A stretch of DNA of 64,000 bases from a bacterium (GTDB taxonomy: Bacteria > Arandabacterota > Arandabacteria > Arandabacterales > Arandabacteraceae). Position 1 is the first letter of the stretch; every line of letters starts with the position of its first letter. Positions 8,856 to 54,066 of the stretch are shown piece by piece. The stretch is taken from contig JAOZOU010000009.1 in NCBI GenBank assembly GCA_029933125.1, positions 10,194 through 74,193 on the forward strand, given 5' to 3'. The notes beneath the pieces were generated by a model. It was not told the origin of the DNA. It did not search any database and saw only the letters and a program-made list of their open reading frames with translations. The translations under genes were made by a program, and so were the position numbers.

Positions 8856-9055
8856 GACTGTGGAACGCGAATTGTAGTACATCAGGCTCAGACCACTTTG
8901 CTATCCAGCGCTACCTCTTGCAATTGGATTGATATCTCGAGGTCGGTTGAGAGAAAAGCCTTGTAGAGCGACGAAATCTGACTTTCTTCTGTGGATTAAC
9001 GATCCAAGGTGTGGTTCAAGACCATCTTGCTTCTGAGAGTTTGAGGAGGGTAGCT

Positions 9056-10237
9056 GTGGAGTATCGCAGGCACAAGGACTTGAGGATCTCGGAGGTTGGA
9101 GTTGGTTGCTATGCTCTGAGTGGAGCTTACGGGAAAAAAGATGTTGATGAGTTCAAGCGAATGCTAAGGCGTGCGTATGAGCTTGGCGTCAACTTTTTCG
9201 ATACAGCTGAAGCATACGGCAATGCAGAAAAGATTCTGGGGGATGCCATCAAACCCTTTCGATCAGAAGTGCACGTTGCCACCAAGGTGGGTATTCGTAA
9301 GGGAGTCGAGCCCAATCTTTCGAAATCGTATGTAACTGCGGCATGTGAGGAAAGTCTCAGGCGGCTTGATACCGACTATATCGACCTCTACCAGGTTCAC
9401 TTTGACGATCCCAAGACACCCGTTGAGGAAACCGTCGAGGCTCTTGAAGGGCTGAAGGCTGCAGGCAAGATACGTCACTACGGGCTTGGACATCTGCCTG
9501 CCGAGAAGGTCAAGCAGTACATGTCAGTTGGAGAAGTCTTCTCTGTGCTTGTCGAGCTCAGTGCCGTTGCAACTGACGCTCGCAACAAGATGCTACCACT
9601 ATGCAGGAGCAAGCAGGTTGGTGTCATTGCCTTCAGCGTAACAGGAAGAGGATTGCTTACGGGTAGATTCAAGCAGCACCCCGAGTTTGAACCCCAGGAC
9701 ATCCGTAACGTCGATCCCTTGTTCAGGCGAGAGCGTTTTGAATCCGGGCTGCGCGTAGCAAGCGAGCTCACCAACATTGGCAAACGGTATGGCAAGACCC
9801 CAGCTCAGGTGGCGATTGCCTGGGTGCTTGCTCAGGCGGGCATCATCTGTGCACTTTGTGGTCCTTCGACTGTTGCTCATCTTGAAGAGAACGTTGGCGG
9901 GAGCGGCTGGCAACTGACCGATGAGGATCTTGCCAGGCTTGAAGACTTACTTGAGCACGAAGCAGCCTTTGTCACAGAACAGCAGAGGGTTGGGATTAAG
10001 GAGATTCTTTCGGGTCGGCTACCAGACGAACCACACCAGGCCTTTAGCGATCTTATCTATGCAATTGAGACAGCAGTCTCGCTTGACCTGACAACCGAGG
10101 CGGAGGTGCTGCCTACCTTCAAAGAACTCTACGCGCTCCGGGGTAAGCTCGATGAGAGCAGCCGTTCCAAACTTGAAGAAGTTCAGGACAGGTTGCGCAG
10201 TCTCATTGGCTTTGTTGACGGAGACACCAATCCGTGA
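9056..10237 (+). CDS. aldo/keto reductase family oxidoreductase with C-terminal extension
   Basis: N-terminal AKR signature (EYRRHKDLRISEVGVGCYALSG, FFDTAEAYGN); GTG 9056 preceded by GAGGAGG; about 80 aa beyond typical AKR length. Confidence 0.8.
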   Translation: MEYRRHKDLRISEVGVGCYALSGAYGKKDVDEFKRMLRRAYELGVNFFDTAEAYGNAEKILGDAIKPFRSEVHVATKVGIRKGVEPNLSKSYVTAACEESLRRLDTDYIDLYQVHFDDPKTPVEETVEALEGLKAAGKIRHYGLGHLPAEKVKQYMSVGEVFSVLVELSAVATDARNKMLPLCRSKQVGVIAFSVTGRGLLTGRFKQHPEFEPQDIRNVDPLFRRERFESGLRVASELTNIGKRYGKTPAQVAIAWVLAQAGIICALCGPSTVAHLEENVGGSGWQLTDEDLARLEDLLEHEAAFVTEQQRVGIKEILSGRLPDEPHQAFSDLIYAIETAVSLDLTTEAEVLPTFKELYALRGKLDESSRSKLEEVQDRLRSLIGFVDGDTNP

Positions 10238-10243: not shown

Positions 10244-10383
10244 GGGGTCGGAGCTAAAAATCGGCAAATCCCCCCAATTGGGGTCGGAGCTAAAAATCTG
10301 CATTCCAGCTTCTTTGGCACGGTCTGTGCAATTGCAAGTTAGGTGCCAGCCACGCCTTCGTGCACGTTTTTAGCTCCGACCCC
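10244..10383. repeat. repeat element locus 1: two direct copies of GGGGTCGGAGCTAAAAA core plus one inverted copy
   Basis: Core at 10244-10260 and 10280-10297 (direct), inverted copy 10365-10383; same core recurs at 43543-43732 and 53976-54066. Confidence 0.8.
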
Positions 10384-10410
10384 GGAGGCCGGGTGTGGTA
10401 TGATGGAGGT

Positions 10411-12111
10411 ATGGCGATTGGGCTGGATTCGTTTGGCGTAACCTTTCTCGCAAGAGACCTTAAGCAAGCAATAGTCGACCTTGAAATTGGCGGCGTTCTG
10501 CTTGCTGGCGATAGGCTGCTGACACTAAACCTCAGTGGACGATCCCGACTCGACCTACGCATCCTTCTCGATCCAACCTTACCACTGGCTTGTGCTGGTC
10601 CAGCCTCCAAGCGCAACACCAAACACGAAGACCCCCCTCATGTGCAGAGGTTTGAAGAGCACCTCTTGGGAACAACCATCGTCGATGTCTCCCAGATAGA
10701 CCTTGATCGCATTCTGCTACTTACAGTTGAAACCGAAAGGGCGAGACTGCGGCTCTATGTCGAGCTCATTCCTCCATTCCCCAACGTGTTCTTGACCGAC
10801 ACTAACGATATACTCATAGAGCCTTTGTTTAAGACTGGAATGCGGACGCGGAGGCGAGCGCTTTCAAGAGGTAAGCCCTATGTCGTCCCTGAGCCCACCG
10901 CCAAGATTCATCCGAGTGACGCTGACGACACCTTGCTCGAAAAGATTGGCTCAAACGCTGACCCCGAGATTCTGAGCAAGCAAATAGTCGGCATAAGCCC
11001 CTTTGTGTCTCGTGAGATAGTTACTCGCAGCAAGGCATCGAGTCTCGGTCGGGCTTTGAAGGAGTTGCTTTCATCCTATAGGTCTGCCTCGATTGAGCCG
11101 TGTATCTTCGAGACTGTACCTGAGCTCAGTCCCAACCCACCGCATCTTGGGATAGCCTGGTTTAGACCAAGGCTTGATGGCGTAAGCAACGTAAGACGAG
11201 TCGGCTCAATGAATGAAGCCACGTGCCGGCTGCTCGAGCACTACCTCGAAACTACCCAGCTTGAACGCCAGCGAGCACATCTTGCAAGGCTTATAGGTCG
11301 AGAGATCAAAAGGCTCGAACACAAACTCAGAGAGATCCCACCGAGAGAGGCTGAGCTGGCAAAGGCTGATTCATATCGCAAGCTCGGAGAACTCCTCGTC
11401 GCTAACCTCAATAGGGTCAAGAAGGGTGACGCCAAGATAAGTGTGATTGACCTCTATGATCCGGATCAGAAGGCAGTTGACATTCCGCTTGAGCCAGCCT
11501 TGAGCCCCCAGGAAAATGTCGAACTCTATTTCAAGAAGGCGAGAAAGGCAAGGCGACGGGCTGAGATGGCTGACATGAGGCGAACCGAGATAACCAAGCG
11601 CATCACCCAACTTGGCCACCTGCTCGATGCGCTCAAGCAAGCCAGTATTTCAGAGCAACATCTCCAGGGTATCGCCTCCAGGGTCGAGCGCAAAAAGCAC
11701 GGAGTGAAGCAGGAAGCAAAGGATATCGATGCCAGAGCCTTGAGCCTTGGGATTCGCCCTCGCCGCTATGTCGTAAGTGGCAGCTGGACGGTACTTGTCG
11801 GAAGATCTGCCAAGGAAAATGACATCCTCACCCATAAGTATGCTCGGCCCTCAGACCTTTTCTTCCATGCTCGCCAGGCTCAAGGCTCACATGTGATTCT
11901 TAAAAAGGGTAAGACCAAGACCGAGGTCTCAAAAGAGGCAATCCTTGAGGCTGCTGCAATCGCTGCCTACTACAGCAAGGCTCGCACCTCAAAGCATGTG
12001 CCGGTCTCCTATACTGAGAAACGCTATGTCAAGAAGGTGAGAAAAGGTCCACCCGGACTCGTCACCCTCCTCAGAGAAAAGGTCGTCTTCGTCGATCCCA
12101 CCCTCCCCTGA
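10411..12111 (+). CDS. rqcH: NFACT-family ribosome quality control protein RqcH (FbpA-like)
   Basis: 567 aa; NFACT-N region, central coiled coil, C-terminal NFACT-R/DUF814 motif (ARPSDLFFHARQAQGSHVILKK); ATG 10411 chosen over track GTG 10360, which lies inside the repeat element. Confidence 0.8.
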   Translation: MAIGLDSFGVTFLARDLKQAIVDLEIGGVLLAGDRLLTLNLSGRSRLDLRILLDPTLPLACAGPASKRNTKHEDPPHVQRFEEHLLGTTIVDVSQIDLDRILLLTVETERARLRLYVELIPPFPNVFLTDTNDILIEPLFKTGMRTRRRALSRGKPYVVPEPTAKIHPSDADDTLLEKIGSNADPEILSKQIVGISPFVSREIVTRSKASSLGRALKELLSSYRSASIEPCIFETVPELSPNPPHLGIAWFRPRLDGVSNVRRVGSMNEATCRLLEHYLETTQLERQRAHLARLIGREIKRLEHKLREIPPREAELAKADSYRKLGELLVANLNRVKKGDAKISVIDLYDPDQKAVDIPLEPALSPQENVELYFKKARKARRRAEMADMRRTEITKRITQLGHLLDALKQASISEQHLQGIASRVERKKHGVKQEAKDIDARALSLGIRPRRYVVSGSWTVLVGRSAKENDILTHKYARPSDLFFHARQAQGSHVILKKGKTKTEVSKEAILEAAAIAAYYSKARTSKHVPVSYTEKRYVKKVRKGPPGLVTLLREKVVFVDPTLP

Positions 12112-12121: not shown

Positions 12122-15100
12122 TCAGCGCATAAGAACCACCTTAGCAGTCGCCGACTGCCTGCCAGATGAGATTCTTACAAAATAGATACCAGCCGAGACG
12201 GCTCTCTCATTCCTTGACATACCGCTCCAGACCAAGGAGTGCATACCAGGTGATAGATGCCCTGCCTCGCTCTCCCACACCAGCCTACCTGCAACGTCAT
12301 AAACAGAGACCCGTACATCACCAAAGGTCGGAATTGTAAAAGATATCTGGAAATTCTCGTGGCTCGGGTTGGGTACAATTTTGGCGATGCCAAAGGCGAG
12401 GTGCTGGCCCCCACCTTGAGAAACACCCGCTATGTCAACATCTCCCTCCCACCGCCGTGCATATATCTCAGGATTACCATCCCTCTCATCCCGCCACACA
12501 ACGGCTATCTTGCCTAAGGCATCGGCAGCCACAGAAGGCAAAGCACAAGAGCCGCTCTCGGATGACAGCCTCGCCTCCCTTGACCAAATCGAAGTGTACG
12601 ACTTGTAGTAGATTGCCTCAGCCTCGTCATAGGTGTCCTCCCAGACCAAATGAAAGCGGCCCCTTCCATCACCACAGATATTGGGCGTCGTGCCAGTACC
12701 AAAAATTTCACCCAGGTCAGTCCACGACCCGCCTTCGTAAAGCATCCCCCGTATGGATGTATCACTCCCATCTTGCTCCTCCCACACCACCATTACCCTG
12801 CCACCGTCGTCGCAGCCAACCGATGGACGCGTCGAGAGACCCGGAGTCGCTACCAGCCTAGTAGAACTGCTCCACACCGAACCATCCCAGACCTTGTAGT
12901 AAATCTCACTATTGCCATCACGTGTATCTTCCCAGACCACGTAGACATTGCCAAGGCTGTCAGCTGCCCCAGCCGGATAGCGTGACACTGCCCCATCGCT
13001 GGTGAGCCTTTCTTCAGTCCACCCTAAACCATCCCATCTAACGCAGTATATCTCCCAGTTGCCATCACGACTGTCCTGGAAGAATATGAATGGCTCATCA
13101 CCCGCACTCACTGCCAACGAAGGATAGTCTGACACACCACTATTGCTGGTCAGTCTTCGATTTGCCTCCCAGATTAAGCCATCATAGTGCTTATAGTATA
13201 TCTCCCAGTTGCCATCACGACTGTCCTTCCAGCACAAGTGGAGCTCGTCACCCACCCCACCACAAATTGAAGGGAGCTGGGATGAAGCCGCATCATAAGT
13301 CAGCCGCGTCTCCGGTAGCCAGCTCACTCCATTCCACTTGCGGTAGTAAATCTCATAATTGCCATCACGATTGTCATACCAGACAACATGCACGTGACCA
13401 CTTGCCTCCCTTACAACACACTTACTGTTGTTCCACGAAGTTGTCGATGAGTAAGTATCGAAGCTTACGCGCTCTTCTTCACCCCAAGGTGTGTCAATGA
13501 TGAGAATGGCGTCAGCGAGGAACGCCTCCTGCAGGTCAGAATCGGAATTCTTAAGCCAGACCTGCCAGTAGCCCGGCTCTGCCCCGCAGAGATCAAAATC
13601 ACATTTGATGTAAGAGTCCGAAAGCCTTGTCACATTCTGTGCAAAAATCGGTTCCTCACCCACCCGCTCGAGCCAGACTGAGGGATTGCCAGCAAAACCG
13701 GTCCCTGTTAGAACGGCATTTACAGGGAAGACGTTGCCAGCTTCCGTTGGGGAAAACCTCGCTATAGCTGCACGTGTCTCACTAGCTGACCAATGCTTAT
13801 AGTATATCTCACTGTTGCCGCCGCCTTGATCATGGCACCAGACGACGTGCACATTCCCGACCGCATCAGTATCCAGGCGACCGGCTTCATCGCGGGTCGA
13901 ATTATATGTCAACCGCTCATCCGGCCACCATCTCACGCCGTCGTACCGCTTGTAATATATCTCATAGTTACCATCACGGCCATCTTGCCACACCACATGC
14001 ACATTACCACTTCCATCAGTCGCTACTGACGGAGCCTCAGAACTGCCTGAAGCATTCGTCAGTCGCTCATCTGGCCCCCAACTCACACCGTCATACCGCT
14101 TGTAATAAATCTCATAGTTACCATCACGGCCATCTTGCCACACCACATGCACATTACCACTTCCATCAGTCGCTACTGATGGATGCCAGGAGTCGCCTGA
14201 AGCATCAGTCAAACGCTCATCTGCTCCCCAACTCACACCATCATAAATTTTATGGTATATCTCCCAGTTACCGTCACGATAATCTTGCCACACAACATGG
14301 ATGTTCCCACTAGTGTCCACGGTCACCTCAGGCATTCGAGATTCGCCTGAAGCAACAGTCAATCGCTCATCCGGCCCCCAACTTGCACCATCATAAACTT
14401 TGTGGTATATCTCCCAGTTACCATCACGGCTCTCTTCCCATACAACGTGCTGATTGCCATCGCTATCCACGGCAACCGCAGCCCACTCAGAATTGCCAGG
14501 ATCGTTCGTCAACCGCTCATCCGGCCCCCAACTTACACCATCATAAACTTTGTGGTATATCTCCCAGTTGCCGTCGCGATAATCCTTCCAGAAAACGTGT
14601 AAGTTTCCGCCGAGGTCTCTTAGTAGCCGTGGATGGAACGAGCTCCCCGAAGCATTAGTTAAGCGTTCATCTGGCCCCCAGGTCACGCCATCATAGCGCT
14701 TATAGTATATCTCTCCATTCCCATCTCGCTCATCCCACCACACAACATGGAGACAGACCCCATCGACGAGTACCCGAGGAGATTGGGAACTGTCATTAGC
14801 ATAGGTAAGCTGCTCTTCAGGTAGCCACTCCCCAGCTGGCATAACATAGAAACCGAAGGGGAGCGTGTCTGGCTGTCCATCTGGATTCTTGACAATAACA
14901 TCCCAGTAGCCAGGGGCAGCGTTCTCGAGATCTGCGGTACAGGTTAGCCTGTCAGAACTCTCAACGCGGATGTTATGACACACGATCCGGGGTTCACCAG
15001 GCTTTTCAAGCCAGACAGAATCAGGAAAGAAAAAGCCAGAACCCGATAGATTTGTGATGCGCACTAATTCATGGCTGTAGCCTTCATCGGGTTCAATCGA

Positions 15101-16279
15101 GTTAATCTGCGGCTTCTCAAGTGTGCCGTTATACCATTCCTTCCAGTATAGCTCCCAGCCGCCATCACGGTTGTCATACCACGCAACATGCACGTTCCCA
15201 CTTTCATCCGTCACTACTGATGGATACCAGGAGTCGCCCGAAGCAACAGTCAAACGCTCATCCGGTCCCCAACTCGCCCCATCATACCGCTTATAATAAA
15301 TCTCATAGTTACCATCACGATTGTCATACCACACCACATGCACGTTACCGCCGGTGTCCGTTCCTACAGAAGGGCTATATGAGTCTCCTGAGGCATTTGT
15401 CAACCGCTCATCTGGTCCCCAGCTCATACCATCATACCGCTTGTAGTATATCTCATAGTTGCCATCACGATTGTCATGCCACACAACATGCACATTACCA
15501 CTTCCATCAGTCGCCACTGATGGATACCGAGAGTAGCCCGAAGCAACTGTCAATCGCTCATCAGAACCCCAACTCATACCATCATACCGCTTGTAATAAA
15601 TCTCATAGTCGCCATCACGATTGTCATGCCACACAACATGCACATTACCACTTCCATCAGTCGCTACTGATGGATACCGAGAGTAGCCCGAAGCAACTGT
15701 CAATCGCTCATCAGAACCCCAACTCACACCATCATACCGCTTATAGTATATCTCTGAGTCGCCATCCCGATGATCCCACCACACCACATGTACATTCCCG
15801 CTCATATCGACTGCGACCGAGGGATCCTGGGAGAGCCCAGCTGAGTTCGTCAACCGCTCATCTGCCCCCCAACTAACACCGTCATATCGCTTATAGTAAA
15901 TCTCCCAGTCGCCATCACGATAGTCCTCCCACACGATATGAACATTACCACTTACGTCCGCAGCCATCCACGCACCCCTAGACTGTCCACCTGCATTCGT
16001 CAAGCGTTCAACAGGGCTCCAACCCGTCCCATCGTAACGCTTGTAGTAAATCTCATCGCTGCCATCGCGAGTGTCCTCCCACACCACATGCACGTTACCA
16101 AACAAGTCCGTGGTCACACACCTACCCATTTCAGCCGAAACCTGGGAAGTGGGTGGATCAGTCAGACGCCAGTCAAAGAACCAGCCAGCAGCTGCCCGAC
16201 TTGCAAAGCACAGACCCAGTGCTATCAAGATCGCAAAAGACCAACCGAACGCTTCGCTTGTGGGTCTATCACGACGCAT
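12122..16279 (-). CDS. giant secreted repeat protein (about 28 x ~50-aa propeller-like repeats, two Ig-like inserts) with T9SS/FlgD-like C-terminal sorting domain
   Basis: Signal peptide MRRDRPTSEAFGWSFAILIALGLCFASRAAAG; repeat unit GNVHVVWxDxRDGNxEIYYKRYDGxSWGxDERLT; C-terminal 85 aa match the T9SS CTD pattern (VPNPSHENFQISF...VYDVAGRLV...GIYFVRI). Start 16279 chosen for signal peptide and SD spacing. Confidence 0.8.
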   Translation of the reverse strand: MRRDRPTSEAFGWSFAILIALGLCFASRAAAGWFFDWRLTDPPTSQVSAEMGRCVTTDLFGNVHVVWEDTRDGSDEIYYKRYDGTGWSPVERLTNAGGQSRGAWMAADVSGNVHIVWEDYRDGDWEIYYKRYDGVSWGADERLTNSAGLSQDPSVAVDMSGNVHVVWWDHRDGDSEIYYKRYDGVSWGSDERLTVASGYSRYPSVATDGSGNVHVVWHDNRDGDYEIYYKRYDGMSWGSDERLTVASGYSRYPSVATDGSGNVHVVWHDNRDGNYEIYYKRYDGMSWGPDERLTNASGDSYSPSVGTDTGGNVHVVWYDNRDGNYEIYYKRYDGASWGPDERLTVASGDSWYPSVVTDESGNVHVAWYDNRDGGWELYWKEWYNGTLEKPQINSIEPDEGYSHELVRITNLSGSGFFFPDSVWLEKPGEPRIVCHNIRVESSDRLTCTADLENAAPGYWDVIVKNPDGQPDTLPFGFYVMPAGEWLPEEQLTYANDSSQSPRVLVDGVCLHVVWWDERDGNGEIYYKRYDGVTWGPDERLTNASGSSFHPRLLRDLGGNLHVFWKDYRDGNWEIYHKVYDGVSWGPDERLTNDPGNSEWAAVAVDSDGNQHVVWEESRDGNWEIYHKVYDGASWGPDERLTVASGESRMPEVTVDTSGNIHVVWQDYRDGNWEIYHKIYDGVSWGADERLTDASGDSWHPSVATDGSGNVHVVWQDGRDGNYEIYYKRYDGVSWGPDERLTNASGSSEAPSVATDGSGNVHVVWQDGRDGNYEIYYKRYDGVRWWPDERLTYNSTRDEAGRLDTDAVGNVHVVWCHDQGGGNSEIYYKHWSASETRAAIARFSPTEAGNVFPVNAVLTGTGFAGNPSVWLERVGEEPIFAQNVTRLSDSYIKCDFDLCGAEPGYWQVWLKNSDSDLQEAFLADAILIIDTPWGEEERVSFDTYSSTTSWNNSKCVVREASGHVHVVWYDNRDGNYEIYYRKWNGVSWLPETRLTYDAASSQLPSICGGVGDELHLCWKDSRDGNWEIYYKHYDGLIWEANRRLTSNSGVSDYPSLAVSAGDEPFIFFQDSRDGNWEIYCVRWDGLGWTEERLTSDGAVSRYPAGAADSLGNVYVVWEDTRDGNSEIYYKVWDGSVWSSSTRLVATPGLSTRPSVGCDDGGRVMVVWEEQDGSDTSIRGMLYEGGSWTDLGEIFGTGTTPNICGDGRGRFHLVWEDTYDEAEAIYYKSYTSIWSREARLSSESGSCALPSVAADALGKIAVVWRDERDGNPEIYARRWEGDVDIAGVSQGGGQHLAFGIAKIVPNPSHENFQISFTIPTFGDVRVSVYDVAGRLVWESEAGHLSPGMHSLVWSGMSRNERAVSAGIYFVRISSGRQSATAKVVLMR

Positions 16280-16690
16280 AGCCATTCCCCCTTTTGAAAG
16301 CCTTTGAAGCATTCTACTCAAAAACATAGCGGCCAACCCGCAGCCACGAACAAAAACCCGGAGAGACGCTCACAATGTCACAGCAGCCCAGCCTGCGCCA
16401 ACATTGGAACCAATTAGCCATTATAGCACACAAGATGCGCTATTTCAACACCTTCTCGTACTTTTGCGGGGAATGGGTGGGGAGAACCCGCTTTCGATGA
16501 AACTGTTTTACATCCTCCACTTCGTTTGATAAAATGGGCGGCCGGCAAGAGAATCTTAACCAAAGGCTGCTGATTGTTCTGCGGGTCTGTCCGAGAGTGC
16601 AGGAAGGGCTAGGGATAGCAGCTACCCAAATCCCTTCCTCACGGTTGATGGGAAATATCGCTTCTGCCTTTCAATTGGGGGTGATTTTCC

Positions 16691-19404: not shown

Positions 19405-20646
19405 CTAGTCCGCCGGGTTCACGAGGCGCCCCATGAAGAGGATGGTGCCGGTTGTGTTCTCCTTTATAAGGAAAATGAAAGGATGATCGGCTCGAAATGT
19501 CTTGGCTGGCGTAGGTGCCATCGCGAGCGCCATGGTAACCCCTGTTGCCGCAGCTGCCTCTGTCCCACGCTCATTCACATCGACATATGCTTTGTGCACA
19601 ACAGCTGAGATGAAAAGATCACGCTTGCCTGTCATACCTGAGAAATCCGCTCTTGTTGGCTCGAATGCATCCTTCATGCCAAGTTCTTCAAGAGCTCCAT
19701 CAACCCGAAACTTAGTCTCGAGCTTAAAACGCGGAAGGCTTATGTCCACCCGCTCAGGCGCAAGACGCCCAAGCCAGGCGGAAAGGGAATCAGGGGCAAG
19801 CCCCGCCTCGAGCCCTTTGAGCCCCTCAACCTTCCTTGGAAGCAGAATCACCATTGAAAGATCTCCACCCTTGTAGGGGAGCTCAAGTGCCTGAAAGTCA
19901 TCTCTCTCAAAATAGTGAAAGTGTCCTTCCTGATGCATCATGGGAATGGTGACCGTCGTTGTGTCATCTACATGGAAGGGCTCATCCGAGGTGCGCTTCT
20001 CCTTGAAAGGATGCTCCCAGTTGCCCAGAAAATAGATGGCGTTGGTAAGCACAAGCCTTACGTCGGGGGTAAGAAGCCCCCTGCCTATGAGCTCCTGTAT
20101 CTTGCCCTCAGTCTTCTCAGACACCCACTCATTTATGCGCTCCCTTGCACCAGCGGCATCATTGGCAAAATCAACCTGAAAAAGGCCTGCCCCATAGTAT
20201 TTTTTGGTTAAACCTATGAACTCAGCCTCAAACTCATAGCCCTCCTGTGCCCAAAGTGCATTCGCCACACTGAGCTTGAAGTTGCCTTTCCTACCAAGGG
20301 CATTGAGTGAATCTGTAAGCTCCCCAAATGCCTTGTGGATACCCTCACCACCTACCCCACCAAGCCCACCAAAATGCAATGCCCGAGCCATCTCCTCAGC
20401 AGTCTTACCCCGCGCTCCTGCATATGTCATCGCAAGCGCACTTGAGATGCTGTATGGGGAAAAGAATAGATTTCCTTCCCCAAGTTGCTGGTAAAGATCA
20501 AGCGCAAAAGCATTGTTTCTTGCCGCAAGTGTGTCCATCGTAACCTCTTGTGTTGGCTTTGCCTGGTCGCTTCCACAGCTAGATGCTCCCATCAGCGACA
20601 TTCCGATAAGCATTACCGCTATGAATCGCCAATCTCGCAGTCCCAT
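19405..20646 (-). CDS. serpin (serine protease inhibitor) with signal peptide
   Basis: Serpin hinge and reactive-centre-loop signature GTEAAAATGVTMALAMAP...HPFIFLI...ILFMGRLVNP plus N-terminal FSPYSISSALAMTYAGARG; ATG 20646 preceded by AGGAGG; track start 20790 likely too long. Confidence 0.85.
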   Translation of the reverse strand: MGLRDWRFIAVMLIGMSLMGASSCGSDQAKPTQEVTMDTLAARNNAFALDLYQQLGEGNLFFSPYSISSALAMTYAGARGKTAEEMARALHFGGLGGVGGEGIHKAFGELTDSLNALGRKGNFKLSVANALWAQEGYEFEAEFIGLTKKYYGAGLFQVDFANDAAGARERINEWVSEKTEGKIQELIGRGLLTPDVRLVLTNAIYFLGNWEHPFKEKRTSDEPFHVDDTTTVTIPMMHQEGHFHYFERDDFQALELPYKGGDLSMVILLPRKVEGLKGLEAGLAPDSLSAWLGRLAPERVDISLPRFKLETKFRVDGALEELGMKDAFEPTRADFSGMTGKRDLFISAVVHKAYVDVNERGTEAAAATGVTMALAMAPTPAKTFRADHPFIFLIKENTTGTILFMGRLVNPAD

Positions 20647-20865
20647 CCTTCTCCTCCTTCCTATGTACCCAACCCCCATATTATGATAACCACTCTCCAA
20701 GGTCAAAACCAAACCTTCGGGGGAGATTCCCTCGAAGACCACATACCAGACGCGTGAAATGCATCGCTCGAGGGTATGCTGAGATCTCATGTGTGGTTCC
20801 TTCAGCCCAGATGGAACCTTCTACGCCAATTTGAGAATTTTAGAGTGGAGAGAAGGAGGGTGAGA

Positions 20866-23387: not shown

Positions 23388-26300
23388 CTACCTCCAGTCA
23401 CCAGAGGAAACAAAAGCAGCCCATCGTACCGGATGATCTATCATTCCATGCGAGCGCAGTTCTTTGAGCACTTTGAGCTCAACCGCGTTAAGGGTGAATG
23501 CAATATTCTCTGGGGGCGTGCTGTAGATGGCACTACAAACTTCGGCAGCAAGTCTGTCAGACACTGGCCACATTGCACCGATTATTGTGCGCGCCCCAGC
23601 CAGCCGAAAGGCACGCACGGGGCCATAAACGCCTTCGGCATCTTCAAGCTCGCCAGTTGCGGTTTCGCACCCCGAAAGCACCACGAGATCGGTTCCTCTG
23701 AGATCAAGGGCAAGGATCTCCTCAGAGGTAAGTGTGCCATCATCAATCATTGGGTTCTCAAAGCCTCTACCATGGAGATTTGCTCGAGCCAGAAAAAGCC
23801 CTGATAAGACCAGGGGATTGAGACTATCAGGGTTGATACTTACCCTATCTGCTGAAGGGTAGATCTTCCCCGGCGAGCAAGATGCCAGGTGATAACCATG
23901 GGTTGCAAGGTGAAGCACGCGCTTCCCAGGAGCATCAGCTTTTACCCTTTCCTCAGTTGCGTCTTTGCCGACATAGATATACGCGGGCTCACCTGTGACC
24001 TCGCGCCACCTATGAGCTACAGCTTCTACCTCACGGCGGCTCTCAGGGAGAGGTGGAACAACAATGTTGAACCGTTCCTTGCAGGGAATCGATGTCTGAC
24101 CATGCTCAAGTAAGTCAAGCTCAGGCTTGAGGGCACCCCTCTCAGGTAAGGCATCGTAGTCGGGGGCACCAATTGCCAGAAGCCCCTTACCCCGCTTAGG
24201 ATTTTTCCCAAGCGCAAGGAGGTCGCGAGCAGCTGCGATGTAGTGTACGGGATAATGTTCGATAAGATACTTGCCATCACCTGCTATCAAGCCTGCAAAG
24301 GAAATGCGCGAAATCTCAGCATCAGAGCAAATGATCACAAGATCCGAACCCTCGAGGTGACCTTCAATCGGCTCAACAAGGATCTCATAGAGCCTTCTTC
24401 CAAGCCTTGTGTAGTATTCCATATCCTCAAGTGTGGGACCTGACCTGGAATCAGCTAACTTCCTCATGTGGTGGCAATAAAGGCGGACAGCAAAGTCGAT
24501 GTCAGCAGCATCGCCCAGCTGTACAATACGCACCTCGGAATCACTGGTTAGCACGAGCGCAAGGTATCTGAAAAAGTAGCCGTTAGGCTCAACCCAGTAC
24601 TGATACTTGAAATACTCAACAACTGTAGTTCTCATAGGAAATCTTCTCAGGGCACTGAGCACCTTGGCTACACTGGTGTCAAGTACCTGCGCTGCGTCGG
24701 CATGATCAGCTATCAAACTGGCAAGTCTTCGCTCAAGGCGCTCCTTTCGCTTTCTGAGATTTTTGAGCATTGTCTCTAAGTCTTTGCTGCTGGGGATCTC
24801 AGAAGTGTAGAGCACCGAGATTTGCTGGTGAATGAGGCTAAGGGAATCCACAACCGCAGTTGCATAATCTGTCGTTCCACGTAAGGCGTGTCTTTGAGCA
24901 AGGAGATCAGTGACACCGCCTTTGGACTGCAATACGGCATCTGCAACCTCGAGCGTGGCATGCTCTTCCCTTTCGGGGAGATCGAAGTAAGTAGTAAGTA
25001 GCCTATCCACACAGGCGAGCTGAACCTCTCGATACTTAAGAGCCTCTCTTTCCGGCATTAGCAGAATCTGATCCGCTACGGTTTGCCATCCGAGCTCGAG
25101 TGTCTCCAGGGCAGCGTCCCAGGCCGCCCGGACGTCACCTCTCATCCTATGAAATCTGCTGAGATCCAGGAGATTCATGGTTGCATCTGGACCAAGCGAA
25201 CCGAGTGCTTTCTGCATAGCAATTGCCTTCTCATACATTGGCATTGCTTCACCATAGCGCCGCTCATCTCGATAGCAATTTGCGAGGGTCATCAAAATGG
25301 AAACAATTGCCGGGCTCGCCGTCTCAGCCTCCGTCTCGCAGGAAGCTATTGCTGAAGCACACAGGCTTTCAGCCCTGCTATAGTCATGGATGTAGCGGTA
25401 GACAGTTGCAAGGGCTGCGATTGCCCGTAGGAGAGCGGGATGCTGAGGACTAAAGGGCTTATTTAAAATTGCAATAGCACGTTCCAGGTTGTCTATAGCC
25501 ATTCTAATGTACTTTGTGTGGTTATTGCTACGCAGCTCGTAGTTCAGGGATCCGAGCTCGGCAAGTACCATACCAATGCCTGGATGATTCGGTCCAAGAC
25601 CTACCTCACCTCTCCCGAGAGCATCCTTGAGCACAACATGTGCCTGATCAAACCGCTGGGATGCAACGAGCACTCTTGCAAAACCGAGCATTGCCTCAAG
25701 ACGGTGGGTATTCATAGCAGGTGACGTGCGATCAAAAATGGCAAGAGCCTCTTCATAAAGCCTTTCAGCCTCGACAAGGTTGGCTTGACAATATCTGAGG
25801 CGTGCCATATTGGTGATTGTTGAGGCAACGAAAGGGTGCCAGTAACCAAGGCTGATGCCGAGCAATCTTCTGGCCTCAAGCAAGTGGTATTCTGCCGAAA
25901 GATAATCCAGTTTGTAAGTATCTATCAACCCTTGCAGGTTCAGGGTATGCGCTAATGTAACACTGTCGGCCCTGTCCGATATCTCAAGAAGGAAGCGTGA
26001 CTCATCAAGCCAATCTTGAGCCCTGGTATAGTAACCCTGGGCAACCGCGAGATGAGCAAGAGCGAGATCGATGTGTGCTTCCCAGCAAGGGTCGGGGTAG
26101 TTCTGAGAAAGATAGCGAGCCTGAGATAGATAGCCTTGCGCTTCAGCATAGTGTCCCAGCTCAGTTCCTATCTCACCAAGGTAGGTAAGAAGTGGCAGGG
26201 CCTGCTCGCGCAATTCCGAAGGGGGAGTTCGGGTGATTAATCGCTCCAGCTTCCCGTACAGGCTTGAAAGTTCTTCGTGACCACCATACTGGAGATAGAA

Positions 26301-26594
26301 CGCAGCCAAGACTGCAATCTGTGAAGGGAGGGATTGAAATTCCCTTCCCTCACCAATCGACCTCAATGTCCTTGCTAGCTTGGCCTGGGCATCACGGTAA
26401 CTTTCATACTTTAAGAGTCGAGTCGATCCGCATTGGGAATCTACAACAACAATCGGCAGGTAGCCCCCACCAACACTTGACGGAGACCCTCCAGCAAGCC
26501 TAATTAACCCAAGAGTGCACACTGCTGCGAGGAGGACCTGATTGACTTTCGATGAATCCATTCCTCCCTGCCTTTGCTTTTCGAGAAAACGCAT
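23388..26594 (-). CDS. TPR-repeat protein with C-terminal CHAT (caspase-like) peptidase domain, predicted secreted
   Basis: CHAT catalytic dyad context VLHLATHGYH (His) and LVVLSGCETATGE (Cys) at C-terminus; multiple TPR-like helical repeats centrally; signal-peptide-like MRFLEKQRQGGMDSSKVNQVLLAAVCTLGL. The first 140-150 aa of the track ORF would overlap the divergent sigma-factor region and are rejected; alternative start ATG 26561. Confidence 0.75.
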   Translation of the reverse strand: MRFLEKQRQGGMDSSKVNQVLLAAVCTLGLIRLAGGSPSSVGGGYLPIVVVDSQCGSTRLLKYESYRDAQAKLARTLRSIGEGREFQSLPSQIAVLAAFYLQYGGHEELSSLYGKLERLITRTPPSELREQALPLLTYLGEIGTELGHYAEAQGYLSQARYLSQNYPDPCWEAHIDLALAHLAVAQGYYTRAQDWLDESRFLLEISDRADSVTLAHTLNLQGLIDTYKLDYLSAEYHLLEARRLLGISLGYWHPFVASTITNMARLRYCQANLVEAERLYEEALAIFDRTSPAMNTHRLEAMLGFARVLVASQRFDQAHVVLKDALGRGEVGLGPNHPGIGMVLAELGSLNYELRSNNHTKYIRMAIDNLERAIAILNKPFSPQHPALLRAIAALATVYRYIHDYSRAESLCASAIASCETEAETASPAIVSILMTLANCYRDERRYGEAMPMYEKAIAMQKALGSLGPDATMNLLDLSRFHRMRGDVRAAWDAALETLELGWQTVADQILLMPEREALKYREVQLACVDRLLTTYFDLPEREEHATLEVADAVLQSKGGVTDLLAQRHALRGTTDYATAVVDSLSLIHQQISVLYTSEIPSSKDLETMLKNLRKRKERLERRLASLIADHADAAQVLDTSVAKVLSALRRFPMRTTVVEYFKYQYWVEPNGYFFRYLALVLTSDSEVRIVQLGDAADIDFAVRLYCHHMRKLADSRSGPTLEDMEYYTRLGRRLYEILVEPIEGHLEGSDLVIICSDAEISRISFAGLIAGDGKYLIEHYPVHYIAAARDLLALGKNPKRGKGLLAIGAPDYDALPERGALKPELDLLEHGQTSIPCKERFNIVVPPLPESRREVEAVAHRWREVTGEPAYIYVGKDATEERVKADAPGKRVLHLATHGYHLASCSPGKIYPSADRVSINPDSLNPLVLSGLFLARANLHGRGFENPMIDDGTLTSEEILALDLRGTDLVVLSGCETATGELEDAEGVYGPVRAFRLAGARTIIGAMWPVSDRLAAEVCSAIYSTPPENIAFTLNAVELKVLKELRSHGMIDHPVRWAAFVSSGDWR

Positions 26595-26834
26595 ACCATG
26601 CACTATTTGGGATGTCAAGCCTGCCAACTCGGATGTGCCCGTCCCAACGCCATAAACAATATTGCACTCCATGCGATTAAGCTTGAAGATATGGCGTTCG
26701 TGAGGTAACATTTGCAGTAGCACACGGTTCCTGCTCGGATCTGCTACGAAAGAGAGCTGGCGGAGGGCAGACTCATCGACTTCTCGCTCGAAGATAAGGA
26801 CACCCGGGAAACCGTCAGGCAATGGATTCAGCCT

Positions 26835-27317
26835 GTGGTAAGAAGTCCAAGGTGGTATCAGCGCATCAAGCACGAAGAGCAGGATATTTACAATGAAGTT
26901 ATGTTGAGATTCCTGATTGCATGTCAGAAAGGCCGCGTCGATACTGCAAGAGATCCCAGGCCTTATGTTCAGAAAATTGCCTTTCACGTCTGCGTTGACT
27001 GGATCAGGCGTAACCATCGAGAGGTCCCTTTCGACGACATCACCGAAGAGATTAGCAGGAAGCTTTTCAGGCGTGAGCCCAGTATTCTCGAAAAGCTCAC
27101 ACGTGATGAAACGGTTGAGGTTCTAGTGGAGCTGATTGGAACCTTGCCTGAGAAATGCCGAAATATATTACGGATGACATTTTATGAAGAAAAATCAGAG
27201 AAGGCGATTGCAGATGCTCTTGGTGTACCCGTTGGAACCGTAAAATCTAGAAAGTCGAGATGCCTCGACAAGCTCAGGCATCTCTTGAAAGGAAAAGACA
27301 ATCAAGCTATGGATTAG
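26835..27317 (+). CDS. ECF-type RNA polymerase sigma factor (sigma-24 family), N-terminally short
   Basis: Region 2 (EQDIYNEVMLRFL...IAFHVCVDWIRRN) and region 4 (AIADALGVPVGTVKSRKSRCLDKLR) motifs; first canonical start is GTG 26835 after in-frame stop at 26718. Confidence 0.75.
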   Translation: MVRSPRWYQRIKHEEQDIYNEVMLRFLIACQKGRVDTARDPRPYVQKIAFHVCVDWIRRNHREVPFDDITEEISRKLFRREPSILEKLTRDETVEVLVELIGTLPEKCRNILRMTFYEEKSEKAIADALGVPVGTVKSRKSRCLDKLRHLLKGKDNQAMD

Positions 27318-38621: not shown

Positions 38622-40055
38622 TCAGCTTCCTTGAATGGTATGGCCCTGTCTAAGGAGCGGCTCAACAACTTCAGGAGATAGCCTGATCATGCGATAAATC
38701 TGGACTCGGTGCATACGCTGCTTCCTCGGATTGATCCACTCCCAAACTATTTCACCGTCCGGAGTAACCTCAAATGCACGGCCTCGATCGCCCTCACAGA
38801 TGAGGGTGTTGCCATTGGCGAGGCGCTGGGCAGAGCCTTTCTCATAGGAGTAGAAACTCTCAGGTGGATCCCCAACATACTGCCATACGATCTCATAGGT
38901 GACCGGATCAAGCTCGATGACTCTTGAATAGCCTCTAACTGGTCCATTGTCAAAGATGAGGATGTGCCCATTGGCTAGCATTGTCGGATGGTGTGGCCAC
39001 TGGAGCTCGCCTTCTCCCCAAACCCAAAGAATCTCACGTGTATCCTTATCAAGAATTGCAATTTGATTTACATTTCGAAAGCATATGAGAAGATTCCCTG
39101 GCTTGAATCTTCTATCCTTAGCCAGAGCATTCTCTGGAAGCACCGTGACCGTATTCATGTGAAAATAATCGTAGATGTTCTTACCACTGCGTTTATAGAC
39201 CTCGAGTTTGCCAGGGACCGTTGCCTTGAAGGAATCAATACCCCCACGTCCTGATAGACTATCAATCAGATTGTCAAGGAAGGATCGTGTATCGAAGGCT
39301 TGCTTTATCTCATCAAGATGGTCATATGTTGACCAGCGACCAATCTCCTTACCATCGAGGGTGAGGTGAAGAATAGCTGCAAATCTGACCTGAAGTCCTC
39401 GATAGTTCTTGATGTCGCGTACAATTGTGTAAATTGTGCTATCCGGAGCAAGTGATGCCTCATGATGGGCAATGGCATCGACCTTCCAGATAAGATTTGA
39501 ATTCCAATCGAGACGCTTGATGTCCCTCATTCTGCTTACAACAATGACATCGCCATTGGGTAGCATGAGCGCAGGTGCCCATACCCAGTGACGCTTACGC
39601 TTCTCAGGGTAGTACCACCTGTGAACCATTTTCCCATACATGTCCATAAGATAGACCTCTGGCGAGATGGCTGAGCAAAAAATCTGATAACCGCGCCATG
39701 AGCGGAGGCTGTCATAGACAGTAACTCCCGAAGGGCCGCTCACTTTCTGGGGAGTCATCGTTGTATAAGGGATTGAGCGAAGACGTTCGAGCTTTCGCTT
39801 CAGATTCTGATCATTGTTAGTCTCACGAGGTGTGTTGCGGGCTAGGGATAGGATAATCACAGCTGCCAGACCCGATGCAACTGCAAGTGAGCCTATGAGC
39901 AGTCGTCTTCTCATTCTGCCTGGAGCCTCTCCTTTCAGGCGAATCTCGCTGAGATTTTCACTGATAACTTCGACAACTTCATAGCCAACTTCATCAAGAA
40001 GTTTCTGGCGAACTTTACCAAAATCATACCATTTGGAGCTAGCTGGTTTAAACAT
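38622..40055 (-). CDS. arylsulfotransferase (ASST)-like beta-propeller protein with N-terminal membrane anchor
   Basis: 477 aa; TM anchor RRRLLIGSLAVASGLAAVIILSLA; His-containing motifs HHPTMLANGHILIFDNG and AQRLANGNTLICEG reminiscent of ASST family; call is tentative. Confidence 0.45.
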   Translation of the reverse strand: MFKPASSKWYDFGKVRQKLLDEVGYEVVEVISENLSEIRLKGEAPGRMRRRLLIGSLAVASGLAAVIILSLARNTPRETNNDQNLKRKLERLRSIPYTTMTPQKVSGPSGVTVYDSLRSWRGYQIFCSAISPEVYLMDMYGKMVHRWYYPEKRKRHWVWAPALMLPNGDVIVVSRMRDIKRLDWNSNLIWKVDAIAHHEASLAPDSTIYTIVRDIKNYRGLQVRFAAILHLTLDGKEIGRWSTYDHLDEIKQAFDTRSFLDNLIDSLSGRGGIDSFKATVPGKLEVYKRSGKNIYDYFHMNTVTVLPENALAKDRRFKPGNLLICFRNVNQIAILDKDTREILWVWGEGELQWPHHPTMLANGHILIFDNGPVRGYSRVIELDPVTYEIVWQYVGDPPESFYSYEKGSAQRLANGNTLICEGDRGRAFEVTPDGEIVWEWINPRKQRMHRVQIYRMIRLSPEVVEPLLRQGHTIQGS

Positions 40056-40218
40056 TTCATTAGCACGGGGCTGTGAAGCAGCCGAATGCTTAGGATCTTA
40101 GTTCTTGTGAGCCAATTGCTATGGTCGGGATCTTTATAACATCTGAGGTGGTAAGTAAATAGGTGGTTACGAGTGCGAGGGGTTATGGGATGGCTTCGGT
40201 TAAGGGTACCAAGGGGGC

Positions 40219-40252
40219 GCAGGATGCCAAGGAGCGCAGGATGCCAAGGAGC
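40219..40252. repeat. perfect 17-bp tandem duplication GCAGGATGCCAAGGAGC x2
   Basis: Read directly at 40219-40235 and 40236-40252 in intergenic region between two reverse-strand genes. Confidence 0.6.
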
Positions 40253-40275: not shown

Positions 40276-42027
40276 TTATGGAGTGTGAGGGTATGAGGTG
40301 CCTGAGCAGTCTCTTGTGTCCTTGATATCGTCACGAGGTTTAAGTTCGAAGATCACATAGGAATATCCTATGTGATCCACGGGTTCATAGTTCTCTCTAA
40401 GCCACTTGTAGCGGTCGGGATCAAAGATACCAACAAGGTTGTTTACACTAACGACTATCTTGCCCGAATCAGGAAACTCAGGATGTAAGTACTTCTCGCT
40501 GAAGCGCCTGCGGACGCGTTTCATCCACCATTCTCCCTTCTCATAGTATGCATCTGGATGTTCTCGCAGATAGCGTTGGAGAGCATTTCTGTCCTGCCCC
40601 CAATCTATATTCGAATCAGCAAGCACTTTGTATGCCTTCTTGCGGTCCCAGACGAGTTCATTGAAGTAAGGGATGTAGTGAGGGAAATAGGAAAGAACCG
40701 AAACTGTCTGATAACAAATAAGAACGCCAAGCGCTGCAGTAAGCTTTGCTTGCCTCGGCAAGCCCTGCTTGAGCAAGCTTCCGCAGAAGACGTGCAGCAG
40801 GGGCAAAACGATCAGGAAGTGCCGAATGCCTATCTGGAGTTTGAAGAAGAAATTGAAATAGATGGCGAAGAAGACCATGGGAGCGACGAGGAAGAGCTCA
40901 TCTTCGAGAAAGCGATAGCGTTTTCGCCTTTTTGTATAGGCGACCATGGCGATTATGGCGATGGCCTGGGTAGCAAGGGGAACCTTAAAGAGATACGCAA
41001 AGAAATAGTAACCCTTGAAGCCACCAATTTCTTTGAGTCGCCCGAGAAGATACATCTTACCGAAGCCTTTGCCGGTTTCGGTCCGATAGATTCCCCAATC
41101 TATTCCTTCGAGATAGGGATATGGCAAAGGGAGAGGAAGTCTTGCAAGTTCTCCGAGGCGAGAGCGTAGGCTTTTGAAGGCGTCACTTCGCAGGGCATAG
41201 TCGTCGAGAGAGCTAAACGTACGGTTGAAGAGAAAAGCTGCATTTATGATAAGGATGCTTACAGCAATGAAAACAACTGTATAGAGCAAGGTGCGAAGCA
41301 AACCCTTTCGCATGGCTTTAAGATCTGCCTGCCTTGCCTGTCTCAGAATCTCAGGACTGTAGCGAATCGCAAGGATGATAGCCTCAAGGGGATAGAGAAG
41401 GATGCAAACATATTTAGAGATCTGACCCATCCCCAGAGCAACTGCTGCAAGGATGCCCCTTCGTGGTGAAGGATGTTTGGTGAATCTCCAGAGTGTCCAT
41501 AGGGAAACAAGTACCATACCTGCTGCATAGACATCTGTAGTTATGAGGCGTGCATGGGCAATCATATTGGGGCTTAAGGCAAAGAGTGTGAGTGAGAGGA
41601 TTGCTCCCTTTGTTCCGTAAAGTTCTCTACTCCAGGTGAAAACAACGAGAGCCACGATGACGCTAAGGATAATTGTTACATATCTGCCCGTGGGAACGGA
41701 TTTTAGAAACGCCTGGTATCTTGCTGCCGCCTTGAGCTCACCTATTTCGGCCGGCAATGCGTTTAGGGCTGTTATGGGCATCGTTCCATCAACGAAACGA
41801 GAGGAATTGCCCGATAGGATGCTGGCGCCATAGCGAAAGTGCCAGGGTTCATCCTGGGTAAGGGACTTATGGCGTATGCTAAGAACCTCAAGAGCAACCA
41901 TAAAGGATAAGAGACCAATTACGACCAGGATTGTTGATGTGGGAATGCGGTCTGCGAACTTTGCGTCGGAGAGGTCGCTGTTGTTCATAACAATATGAAG
42001 GTAAGCCAAAGCAAGGACATCTTTCAA
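40276..42027 (-). CDS. GT-C fold membrane glycosyltransferase (GT39/ArnT/PMT-like), second copy
   Basis: 583 aa multi-pass membrane protein; DE motif in first loop (LTQDEPWHF); start may be at a downstream Met. Confidence 0.6.
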   Translation of the reverse strand: MKDVLALAYLHIVMNNSDLSDAKFADRIPTSTILVVIGLLSFMVALEVLSIRHKSLTQDEPWHFRYGASILSGNSSRFVDGTMPITALNALPAEIGELKAAARYQAFLKSVPTGRYVTIILSVIVALVVFTWSRELYGTKGAILSLTLFALSPNMIAHARLITTDVYAAGMVLVSLWTLWRFTKHPSPRRGILAAVALGMGQISKYVCILLYPLEAIILAIRYSPEILRQARQADLKAMRKGLLRTLLYTVVFIAVSILIINAAFLFNRTFSSLDDYALRSDAFKSLRSRLGELARLPLPLPYPYLEGIDWGIYRTETGKGFGKMYLLGRLKEIGGFKGYYFFAYLFKVPLATQAIAIIAMVAYTKRRKRYRFLEDELFLVAPMVFFAIYFNFFFKLQIGIRHFLIVLPLLHVFCGSLLKQGLPRQAKLTAALGVLICYQTVSVLSYFPHYIPYFNELVWDRKKAYKVLADSNIDWGQDRNALQRYLREHPDAYYEKGEWWMKRVRRRFSEKYLHPEFPDSGKIVVSVNNLVGIFDPDRYKWLRENYEPVDHIGYSYVIFELKPRDDIKDTRDCSGTSYPHTP

Positions 42028-43542: not shown

Positions 43543-43732
43543 GGGGTCGGAGCTAAAAACCTCCAAATCACCCATTTTGGGGTCGGAGCTAAAAAAACGC
43601 AAATCACCCAAAATGGGGTCGGAGCTAAAAAAATGCAAATTGGCTGGAATTGCCTCTTCCACAAGGCCCATGGCTCCTTAACTCATTTACACACAAAGGG
43701 ATACGCGTGTGCAGATTTTTAGCTCCGACCCC
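43543..43732. repeat. repeat element locus 2: three direct 36-bp-unit copies plus inverted terminal copy (MITE-like arrangement)
   Basis: Core GGGGTCGGAGCTAAAAA at 43543-43559, 43579-43597, 43615-43633; inverted copy 43716-43732; the inverted copy overlaps the last codons of the DUF89 gene. Confidence 0.8.
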
Positions 43733-53839: not shown

Positions 53840-53975
53840 GATCCGTAACCTCGGGACAATCTCACGAGGTGGTTGCCATCGCGAGATTATCTTTGTGACG
53901 CTAACGTAAACTTTTGCTTGGTGCGCGTCAATCGTTTGGAGGTACAAGGCTCAAAGCCAGAGGAGCGAGATTGCA

Positions 53976-54066
53976 GATTTTTAGCTCCGACCCCAAAATC
54001 AGCAATTTGAAGATTTTTAGCTCCGACCCCAAAATCAGCAGTTTGAAGATTTTTAGCTCCGACCCC
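53976..54066. repeat. repeat element locus 3: three tandem 36-bp units containing the same 17-19 bp core, reverse orientation
   Basis: GATTTTTAGCTCCGACCCC at 53976-53994, 54012-54030, 54048-54066 with near-identical 17-bp spacers; lies between divergent genes. Confidence 0.8.

Follow-up and report, generated by a model that had tools for sequence, protein, structure and literature searches.

The DNA analysed here is a stretch of 64,000 nucleotides (hereafter the window) from contig JAOZOU010000009.1 of the bacterial assembly GCA_029933125.1. It is ordinary core chromosome, with genes for DnaB, CoaBC, Gmk, YicC, an aldo/keto reductase, RqcH, GcpE, SecDF, a sulfatase and others, and Pfam scans of its open reading frames (ORFs) returned no transposase, integrase, cas gene, rpoN or sigma-54 activator. 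A window protein with a type-IX-secretion sorting domain suggests that the host belongs to the Fibrobacteres-Chlorobi-Bacteroidetes (FCB) group. Between the aldo/keto reductase gene (9011-10237) and rqcH lies a short repeat element (locus 1) built on a 17-nt core, GGGGTCGGAGCTAAAAA, which belongs to a family of interspersed repeats. Some members of this family carry the consensus of a sigma-54 promoter at a fixed distance from the core.

Locus 1 separates two tandem genes, with 6 nt between the stop codon of the reductase gene and the element, and 27 nt between the element and the start of rqcH. The first core copy (10244-10260, plus strand) begins 6 nt past the TGA of the reductase gene. A 19-nt spacer, tcggCAAATccccccaatt (10261-10279, plus strand), which is the tail of a tandem-type unit, separates it from a second copy followed by TCTGCA (10280-10302, plus strand). 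The latter is the left arm of a 23-nt inverted repeat (core plus NNTGCA), whose right arm is an inverted core followed by CGTGCA (10361-10383, minus strand); the two arms read GGGGTCGGAGCTAAAAATCTGCA and TGCACGTTTTTAGCTCCGACCCC. The initial annotation had described the core as present twice directly and once inverted, with a unit of about 36 bp, and our analysis agrees with it, the direct copies being 36 bp apart with a CAAAT-containing spacer. It had placed the inverted copy about 67 nt downstream: the inversion is correct, but we measured 70 nt from the end of the second direct copy. Exactly 18 nt after core copy 2 lies a sigma-54-type -24/-12 motif, TGGCACGGTCTGTGCA (10315-10330, plus strand), oriented toward rqcH. 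Another one, TGGCACCTAACTTGCA, with a perfect consensus (10333-10348, minus strand), lies exactly 18 nt after the inverted core and is oriented toward the tandem copies and, beyond them, the reductase 3' end. The two motifs overlap in a palindrome, TGGCAC-N6-TGCAATTGCA-N6-GTGCCA. The initial annotation mentioned neither these motifs nor the location of the element next to stop codons. Transcription from the plus motif is predicted to start at about 10341-10343.

The rqcH start had been placed within the element. The GTG in question (10360) is indeed part of the extended inverted copy, but RqcH homologues all begin with MAIGLDSFG, and therefore the true start is the ATG at 10411-10413. This ATG is preceded by GGAGG (10405-10409) and by a TATGAT that resembles a -10 hexamer by eye (together 10399-10413, plus strand, outside the element). 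The GTG start is thus an annotation artefact. Since the element ends at 10383 and rqcH starts at 10411, element and gene do not overlap.

Locus 2 lies between two convergent genes, encoding the sulfatase and an ARMT1-like protein. Three tandem cores (starting at 43543, 43579 and 43615, a 36-bp period; 43543-43637, plus strand) begin 1 nt past the sulfatase stop. They face an inverted copy (43710-43732, minus strand), within whose core a TAA (43719-43721) is the stop codon of the ARMT1-like gene (C-terminus ...GRS*). Locus 3, between divergent genes, has three tandem cores (53978, 54014 and 54050; 53971-54066, minus strand) and no inverted partner. At the same +18 offset we read from the sequence a degenerate sigma-54-like motif, TGGCTTTGAGCCTTGT (53944-53959, minus strand), which faces a methyltransferase gene (ATG 53839). 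A sigma-70-like promoter, TTGACA-17-TAGCAT (54075-54103, plus strand), lies 8 nt outside the outermost core and ends 8 nt before the ATG (54112) of a thioredoxin/AhpC-like gene. Only 6-8 nt separate the -10-like hexamers TATGAT and TAGCAT (10399-10413 and 54098-54114) from the start codons of rqcH and the thioredoxin/AhpC-like gene, which suggests that the sigma-70-type promoters of these two genes give leaderless or near-leaderless transcripts.

We searched the window for the core allowing up to three mismatches. This revealed ten matches, all of them exact, at 10244+, 10280+ and 10367- (locus 1), 43543+, 43579+, 43615+ and 43716- (locus 2), and 53978-, 54014- and 54050- (locus 3), when shuffled sequences gave a mean of 0.15 and a maximum of one. 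The direct copies have a period of 36 bp at all three loci. The core had been reported to recur at two further intergenic loci, and these ten copies bear this out. A profile built from related copies found only the same ten in the window, the next match having E > 1; therefore the window holds no decayed relics. Locus 3 was also recovered in an independent short-read assembly (Logan SRR21545388, contig L069). The shuffles, the profile search and this reproduction rule out chance or an artefact of a single assembly. In L069, which comes from the same organism, the contig end falls inside the tandem array of locus 3 (12202-12257), and such a break is the behaviour expected of a true multi-copy repeat.

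The initial proposal of a multi-locus family also holds beyond the window. Exact copies of the 17-mer are present in 10 contigs of the related metagenome-assembled genome (MAG) Meg22_1214_Bin_137 and in three contigs of one Acidobacteriota MAG. The 23-nt pattern formed by the core and NNTGCA occurs in 33 metagenome contigs from few samples. The other 17 genome matches to the 17-mer are single; we took them as chance because they have no common flanks and about 70 chance matches are estimated in 596 Gb. No 23-nt pattern or family member was found in viral contigs or in plasmid and phage collections. From related DNA we gathered 91 copies, 87 of them distinct. As they were retrieved through exact matches, intact cores are favoured in this sample; the profile search of the window is free of this bias. 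The literature search retrieved no paper mentioning the motif in a relevant context, none combining sigma-54 with miniature inverted-repeat transposable elements (MITEs), and no description of a repeat family with a fixed-register sigma-54 promoter. We are nearly certain that this is a real, undescribed and lineage-specific family of interspersed repeats.

Cores occur alone, in inverted pairs, and in tandem arrays with periods of 27-47 bp (mostly 36-37 bp, the others being 27-29 and 47 bp). An element comprises at least one direct core, a variable interior and at least one inverted core, with GGGG always outward and TGCA inward. The interiors span 10-550 nt, are unrelated to each other in sequence and are mostly non-coding. 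The elements have the termini GGGGTC ... GACCCC, and the core, with or without its CGTGCA extension, has no internal dyad symmetry and no GTAG. We distinguish two types of units: type A is the core followed by CGTGCA, and type B is the core (often with T12C) followed by GCTGCAAATCCCCCCnnTTT, which makes the 36-37-bp arrays. The typical element is asymmetric, with one type A end and one type B end. We rejected a small conserved ORF or peptide, either in the interior or starting from the GTG of CGTGCA, as the ORF is not of constant length and third-codon positions are among the conserved bases.

The most telling feature of the family is the position of the sigma-54 motif. The sequence TGGCA(C/T)-N5-(T/C/A/G)TGC(A/T/C), in short TGGCAY-N5-TTGCW, is found exactly 18 nt after the core in 15 of the 86 distinct copies. 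We required at least six of seven consensus positions, and these 15 copies score 6-7. Only 40 motifs of that quality occur in the 425,840 positions scanned, so that about 0.005-0.01 would be expected at any one fixed offset. The N12 and N5 spacers differ among copies while the TGGCAY and TTGC blocks remain intact. In 13 of the 15 copies a pyrimidine precedes TGG, and TGGCAC is often followed by a G, in line with the extended consensus YTGGCACGr. In the sole possible reading frame, the invariant bases of the motif include third-codon positions, which indicates a constraint on the DNA and not on a peptide. These 15 copies have the features that define a sigma-54 promoter in sequence, a -24 GG and a -12 GC spaced by 10 nt within YTGGCACGr-N3-TTGCW.

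Two repeat-bearing contigs or contig pairs encode sigma-54 activators: L051 (373-1479, plus strand) has an enhancer-binding protein with Sigma54_activat (4.5e-65) and HTH_8 domains, and L036/L063 has one of the GSFTGA type (412-1227 of L036, minus strand). From what is established about such proteins, their presence suggests that the lineage uses sigma-54. Neither protein has an N-terminal sensor domain. In that of L051 the usual GAFTGA loop reads GAFTDA, and the gene in L036 is seemingly interrupted, possibly by a frameshift or a sequencing error. We found an independent head-to-head double sigma-54 palindrome, with the same geometry as locus 1, in Pseudomonas PaP1-like phages, and count it in favour of the promoter cassette proposed below. 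This intergenic palindrome, TGGCACagtctTTGCAATTGCAAttagcGTGCCA (L068 601-637; Pseudomonas phage PaP1, NC_019913.1 78907-78943), is kept in 69 PaP1-like phage records. It has the same double consensus as positions 10315-10348 of the window and was the only phage match, no family member having been found in phages.

We then considered the position of the copies relative to genes. By our own count from the table of genomic contexts, the GGGG end faces a gene tail about 33 times and a gene head about 15 times. At gene tails it lies directly at the stop codon: the core contains the TAA of the gene in 12 cases, with one and the same frame throughout (C-terminus ...GRS*), and about nine further cores begin 0-8 nt past a stop codon. 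About one-third of the units adjoin gene starts. When the GGGG end is at a gene head, there is often a sigma-70-like promoter with a G-rich spacer that starts 0-14 nt outside the core; such outward promoters lie just outside the core in eight of the 68 outermost units, versus 2.2% of background windows. One derivative adjoins a tRNA gene: 10 nt past this gene lie the core and a partial inverted copy of 11 nt (L015 2415-2560, with orthologues in L037, L041 and L064). There, an 11-bp hairpin followed by TTTT resembles a terminator and is kept across genomes that are 72-96% identical. No intrinsic-terminator pattern, i.e. a GC-rich hairpin with a U tract, was found at the three loci of the window. 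This pattern being restricted to the tRNA-adjoining derivative of related contigs, we rejected an intrinsic terminator as the nature of the family.

The comparison of orthologous sites separates the conservation of the core from that of its surroundings. Between contigs L020 and L040, the coding sequence is 85% identical, the core with CGTGCAT 100% and the adjacent spacer 41%. Between L015 and L064 the core is 100% identical and the downstream sequence 60%, and between L016 and L045 the interior of the element is 94% identical and the flank 70%. Hence, at orthologous sites of genomes that are 72-78% identical, the core is kept and perfectly conserved when its surroundings have decayed. The 3' end of the sulfatase gene carries an element both in the window and in contig L049 (72% identity), with the tandem array on opposite sides. 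For this difference, an inversion is a less likely cause than differential tandem duplication, because the sigma-54 remnant of the window, as read from the two sequences, is on the same side relative to the sulfatase gene. Stable loci, fluid arrangements and invariant cores point to selection on the core, to its continual homogenisation, or to both.

A check of orthologous regions for presence or absence had been proposed as a test of mobility. Classical mobility is not supported by our results. None of 23 pairs has a target-site duplication (direct repeats at the ends do not exceed 2 nt), we did not find close relatives in which the orthologous site is empty, and elements are retained between genomes about 72% identical. 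A distant rqcH orthologue (L066, 53% identity) has no element upstream, which is uninformative on recent mobility. Pfam scans of about 70 neighbouring ORFs (window, 10 MAG loci, 33 metagenome contigs and four Acidobacteriota loci; about 330 kb) revealed ordinary genes only, and no transposase, recombinase or REP-associated tyrosine transposase (RAYT), REP standing for repetitive extragenic palindrome. The Acidobacteriota MAG, MFD01721.bin.2.2 (GC about 61%), has a classical MITE-like family of 227-373 bp, whose copies (L022 6702-6976; L023 1365-1591 and 3792-4117; L031 793-1165) are 84-87% identical, also with no target-site duplication.

These observations lead us to favour, tentatively, a mosaic repeat akin to MITEs and to bacterial interspersed mosaic elements (BIMEs), in which the core is a protein-recognition site and one subfamily is a portable sigma-54 promoter cassette. 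The building block is the invariant 17-nt core with NNTGCA, the core, in this view, being recognized by a sequence-specific protein. In the type A subfamily (core, CGTGCA, 12 nt, TGGCAY-N5-TTGCW), the sigma-54 consensus is held at a constant distance from the core, and the unit would be a portable promoter. At locus 1, overlapping promoters that fire divergently would arise from two such units placed head-to-head. Transcription from the rightward one, which has the two tandem cores upstream (about -45/-61 and -81/-97), would reach rqcH after a leader of about 70 nt. That from the leftward one would be antisense to the reductase gene or overlap its 3' end. The family persists at gene ends, against stop codons, with its cores kept identical by selection, homogenisation or both, and it would spread by a mechanism that leaves no target-site duplication.

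Several observations weigh against the promoter cassette. Only about 17% of the copies carry the sigma-54 motif. It is lacking in locus 2 and is only degenerate in locus 3. Classical enhancer sites of sigma-54 activators lie farther from the promoter than the nearest core does here (-45 to -61). By our own reading of the context table, the sigma-54 units point in the sense direction toward a downstream gene about six times and antisense into a convergent gene about six times, which is not what a host regulon would show. We did not see rpoN in the window or in the related sequence, the latter consisting of genome fragments only. The identity of the core (17/17 over about 90 sites) is far stricter than that of normal transcription-factor sites and resembles the result of copy-paste or homogenisation. 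Finally, the termini of the Acidobacteriota MITE-like family are identical to the 17-nt core in a host of a different phylum. This cross-phylum identity is the best argument for a transferable enzyme that recognizes the core, and speaks for a transposase-type recognition sequence. A bolder version, which we consider rather unlikely, is a self-propagating sigma-54 enhancer-promoter cassette, with the core as the site of a dedicated protein (activator, architectural factor or mobilizing enzyme) and in fixed register with a -24/-12 promoter. It would owe its presence at gene ends to copying by a mechanism that recognizes 17 bp, makes no target-site duplication and operates in the Acidobacteriota MITE family as well. 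Unrelated genes such as rqcH, together with antisense transcripts of their neighbours, would thereby be wired into a single sigma-54-dependent programme.

A first alternative is a purely selfish, non-autonomous mobile element of the MITE type or of the type of REP doublets forming hairpins (REPINs). Under this possible, if somewhat doubtful, explanation, the 17-23-nt core is the end used by a transposase or recombinase encoded elsewhere and leaving no target-site duplication (for example, of the Y1/RAYT or site-specific type), the sigma-54 motif is a relic of the parent's promoter, and effects on the host are incidental. It accounts for terminal inverted repeats that always have GGGG outward, for the near-perfect identity of the cores and for their presence at the ends of the 227-373-bp Acidobacteriota family. 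It also accounts for sigma-54 units with no preferred orientation toward downstream genes, for the break of the short-read assembly at the repeat, and for the different arrangements at orthologous loci (window versus L049). It fits poorly with the absence of target-site duplications (0/23 pairs), with unrelated interiors of 10-550 nt and many solo copies, with the lack of a transposase or recombinase among the neighbours in about 330 kb and of decayed copies in the window, and with retention at orthologous sites of genomes about 72% identical. It fits poorly, too, with sigma-54 blocks that are conserved between diverged spacers, which implies selection on the blocks. Another alternative is a 3' untranslated region (UTR) element acting at the RNA level. 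The core would then be transcribed with the upstream gene as an mRNA-stabilizing hairpin, a terminator or a processing site, as are REPs in Escherichia coli. We regard it as improbable. The outer end of the core does abut stop codons in the sense direction, with the TAA in the core in 12 cases and about nine more cores 0-8 nt past a stop, inverted pairs fold into long stems, and the tRNA-adjoining hairpin with its TTTT is terminator-like. Yet, a single core makes no hairpin, the three window loci have neither an intrinsic terminator nor a match in Rfam, the A and T runs are on the loop side of the paired stem, the opposite of a terminator, about one-third of the units are at gene starts, and the sigma-54 motif is left unexplained. 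The initial annotation had suggested that direct and inverted copies pair as a long-loop hairpin. RNA folding gave z-scores of -6.1 and -5.0, so the pairing is possible, but inverted repeats pair automatically. The hairpin does not stand as the main explanation, because many copies are solo, locus 3 has no inverted copy, and the sigma-54 motif occurs beside single copies.

Perfect inverted repeats of 17-23 nt around a short segment that contains a promoter also recall fimS or the invertible promoters of Bacteroides. An inverton, in which a site-specific invertase would flip the segment between cores and redirect its internal sigma-54 promoter, is nevertheless very unlikely. Many copies are solo or only in tandem (locus 3), locus 1 is nearly palindromic so that its inversion would change little, a single orientation is seen in overlapping or orthologous contigs (L033/L057, L036/L063, L055/L062, L016/L045), and there is no invertase nearby. 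Even harder to credit is a DNA uptake signal of the type of DNA uptake sequences or uptake signal sequences (DUS/USS), or another genome-wide signal amassed by biased uptake. In its favour, the core is an exact and strongly conserved oligomer common to related species, often in inverted pairs at gene ends and with A/T tracts about 10 bp apart behind it. Its density is however far too low (three loci in 64 kb) and its location is strictly intergenic or at the extreme 3' end of genes. Uptake sequences are characterized neither by tandem arrays nor by a sigma-54 motif in fixed register, and the core is present in an unrelated phylum.

The promoter cassette that we favour can be set against known systems, among which the closest kinds are REP/BIME/REPIN and MITE-like mosaics such as BrickBuilt, the idea of mobile promoters being close as well. 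Like REPs, BIMEs and REPINs, the family is short, extragenic and in high copy number, occurs as singlets, inverted doublets and mosaic clusters, lies just past stop codons, and persists at orthologous sites over long periods with no target-site duplication. Some BIMEs embed a protein-binding site, that of IHF. The REP unit is however an imperfect palindrome with a conserved 5' GTAG that is mobilized by RAYTs, whereas the core of this family is non-palindromic and lacks GTAG, and no RAYT was found in the related sequence scanned. We therefore rejected membership of the REP class, from the absence of palindrome and GTAG in the sequence, and we know of no REP family with a fixed-register sigma-54 promoter. 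The long persistence of REPINs has been described (PMC8049555).

BrickBuilt elements of Porphyromonas gingivalis are only intergenic, and have small terminal inverted repeats, a tandem minisatellite and bidirectional promoter activity, but no transposase (PMC4596501). They consist of contiguous 23-nt repeats between a conserved leader and a conserved tail, have inverted repeats that match known insertion sequences, and are 49-591 nt from coding sequences (PMC4596501). The family described here is likewise intergenic, with terminal inverted repeats, tandem repeats and a putative promoter, carries no transposase, and has a host that is probably also in the FCB group. Compared by description, it differs in having 36-37-bp units, variable spacers and unconserved interiors, in abutting or overlapping stop codons, and in the sigma-54 type of its promoter. 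Putative mobile promoters are short promoter-bearing sequences found upstream of unrelated genes in a genome and common to related genomes (PMC3488235). They were defined by overall upstream similarity, whereas the present family keeps an invariant 17-nt core and a fixed-register motif, the rest having diverged, and about half of its copies face away from any gene.

Relative to sigma-54 promoters with upstream activator sites, of the glnA and pspA type, we observe the same GG-N10-GC within YTGGCACGr-N3-TTGCW, repeated upstream sites, and activator genes in the lineage. Classical enhancer sites are however dyad-symmetric, degenerate and usually at -80 to -150, whereas the core is asymmetric, invariant and at about -45 to -61, in a module dispersed as a repeat. 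Concerning MITEs, the terminal inverted repeats are present (17-23-nt arms, GGGG outward). A classical DDE-type MITE was rejected given the 0/23 target-site duplications and the lack of whole-length homology in the lineage of the window, which only the Acidobacteriota family shows. The inverted repeats of the Tn3 family have termini in GGGGTC, an A-rich middle and a length of about 38 bp, end in TAAG and generate 5-bp target-site duplications. The core resembles these ends in its GGGGTC and A-rich middle but the family has no target-site duplication. Integron attC sites were rejected because the termini are GGGGTC ... GACCCC and not RYYYAAC ... GTTRRRY, the flanks are dispersed housekeeping genes, and there is no integrase. 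An array of clustered regularly interspaced short palindromic repeats (CRISPR) was rejected because there are at most three units, the 19-20-nt 'spacers' resemble one another, and cas genes are absent. A known RNA family was rejected as well: the covariance models of Rfam 15 gave nothing at gathering score in the window and only chance-level matches at relaxed E-values.

Short interspersed repeats are common in bacteria, and for few of them is it established what they do or how they spread. An unusually clear handle on them is provided by this family, with an invariant core 18 nt from a canonical sigma-54 promoter, spacers free to vary, and copies in several genomes whose lineage is uncultured. 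Should the promoters prove active, it would be a documented case of a repeat element distributing sigma-54 promoters around a genome. Sigma-54 promoters are silent unless fired by a dedicated activator. Hence, active copies would provide a ready-made route to build or rewire a tightly switched regulon, as well as antisense transcripts at gene ends. There is also a point for annotation: these repeats mislead gene callers, as for the rqcH start, and break short-read assemblies.

Some other features of the window deserve mention. It has seven sigma-54 matches in total, versus about two expected from shuffles; among those without a core are 60589-60574, 62083-62068 and 63567-63552 (all minus strand), one of which is about 290 nt upstream of secD. 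The largest repeat family of the window is within a gene (12122-16336, minus strand) for a 1404-aa protein with about 16 tandem 150-nt (50-aa) repeats of the BNR/SBBP beta-propeller type and a C-terminal type-IX-secretion sorting domain. A bacterial serpin (19405-20790, minus strand; Pfam Serpin, 6.5e-130) is in the same neighbourhood as a 1209-aa TPR-CHAT protein (23388-27017, minus strand). Lastly, a perfect 17-nt tandem duplication, GCGCAGGATGCCAAGGA (40217-40252; 2.1 copies), is located in the gap between the ORFs at 38622-40055 and 40276-42027 (both minus strand), just downstream of the latter, which is a PMT_2 glycosyltransferase-like gene.

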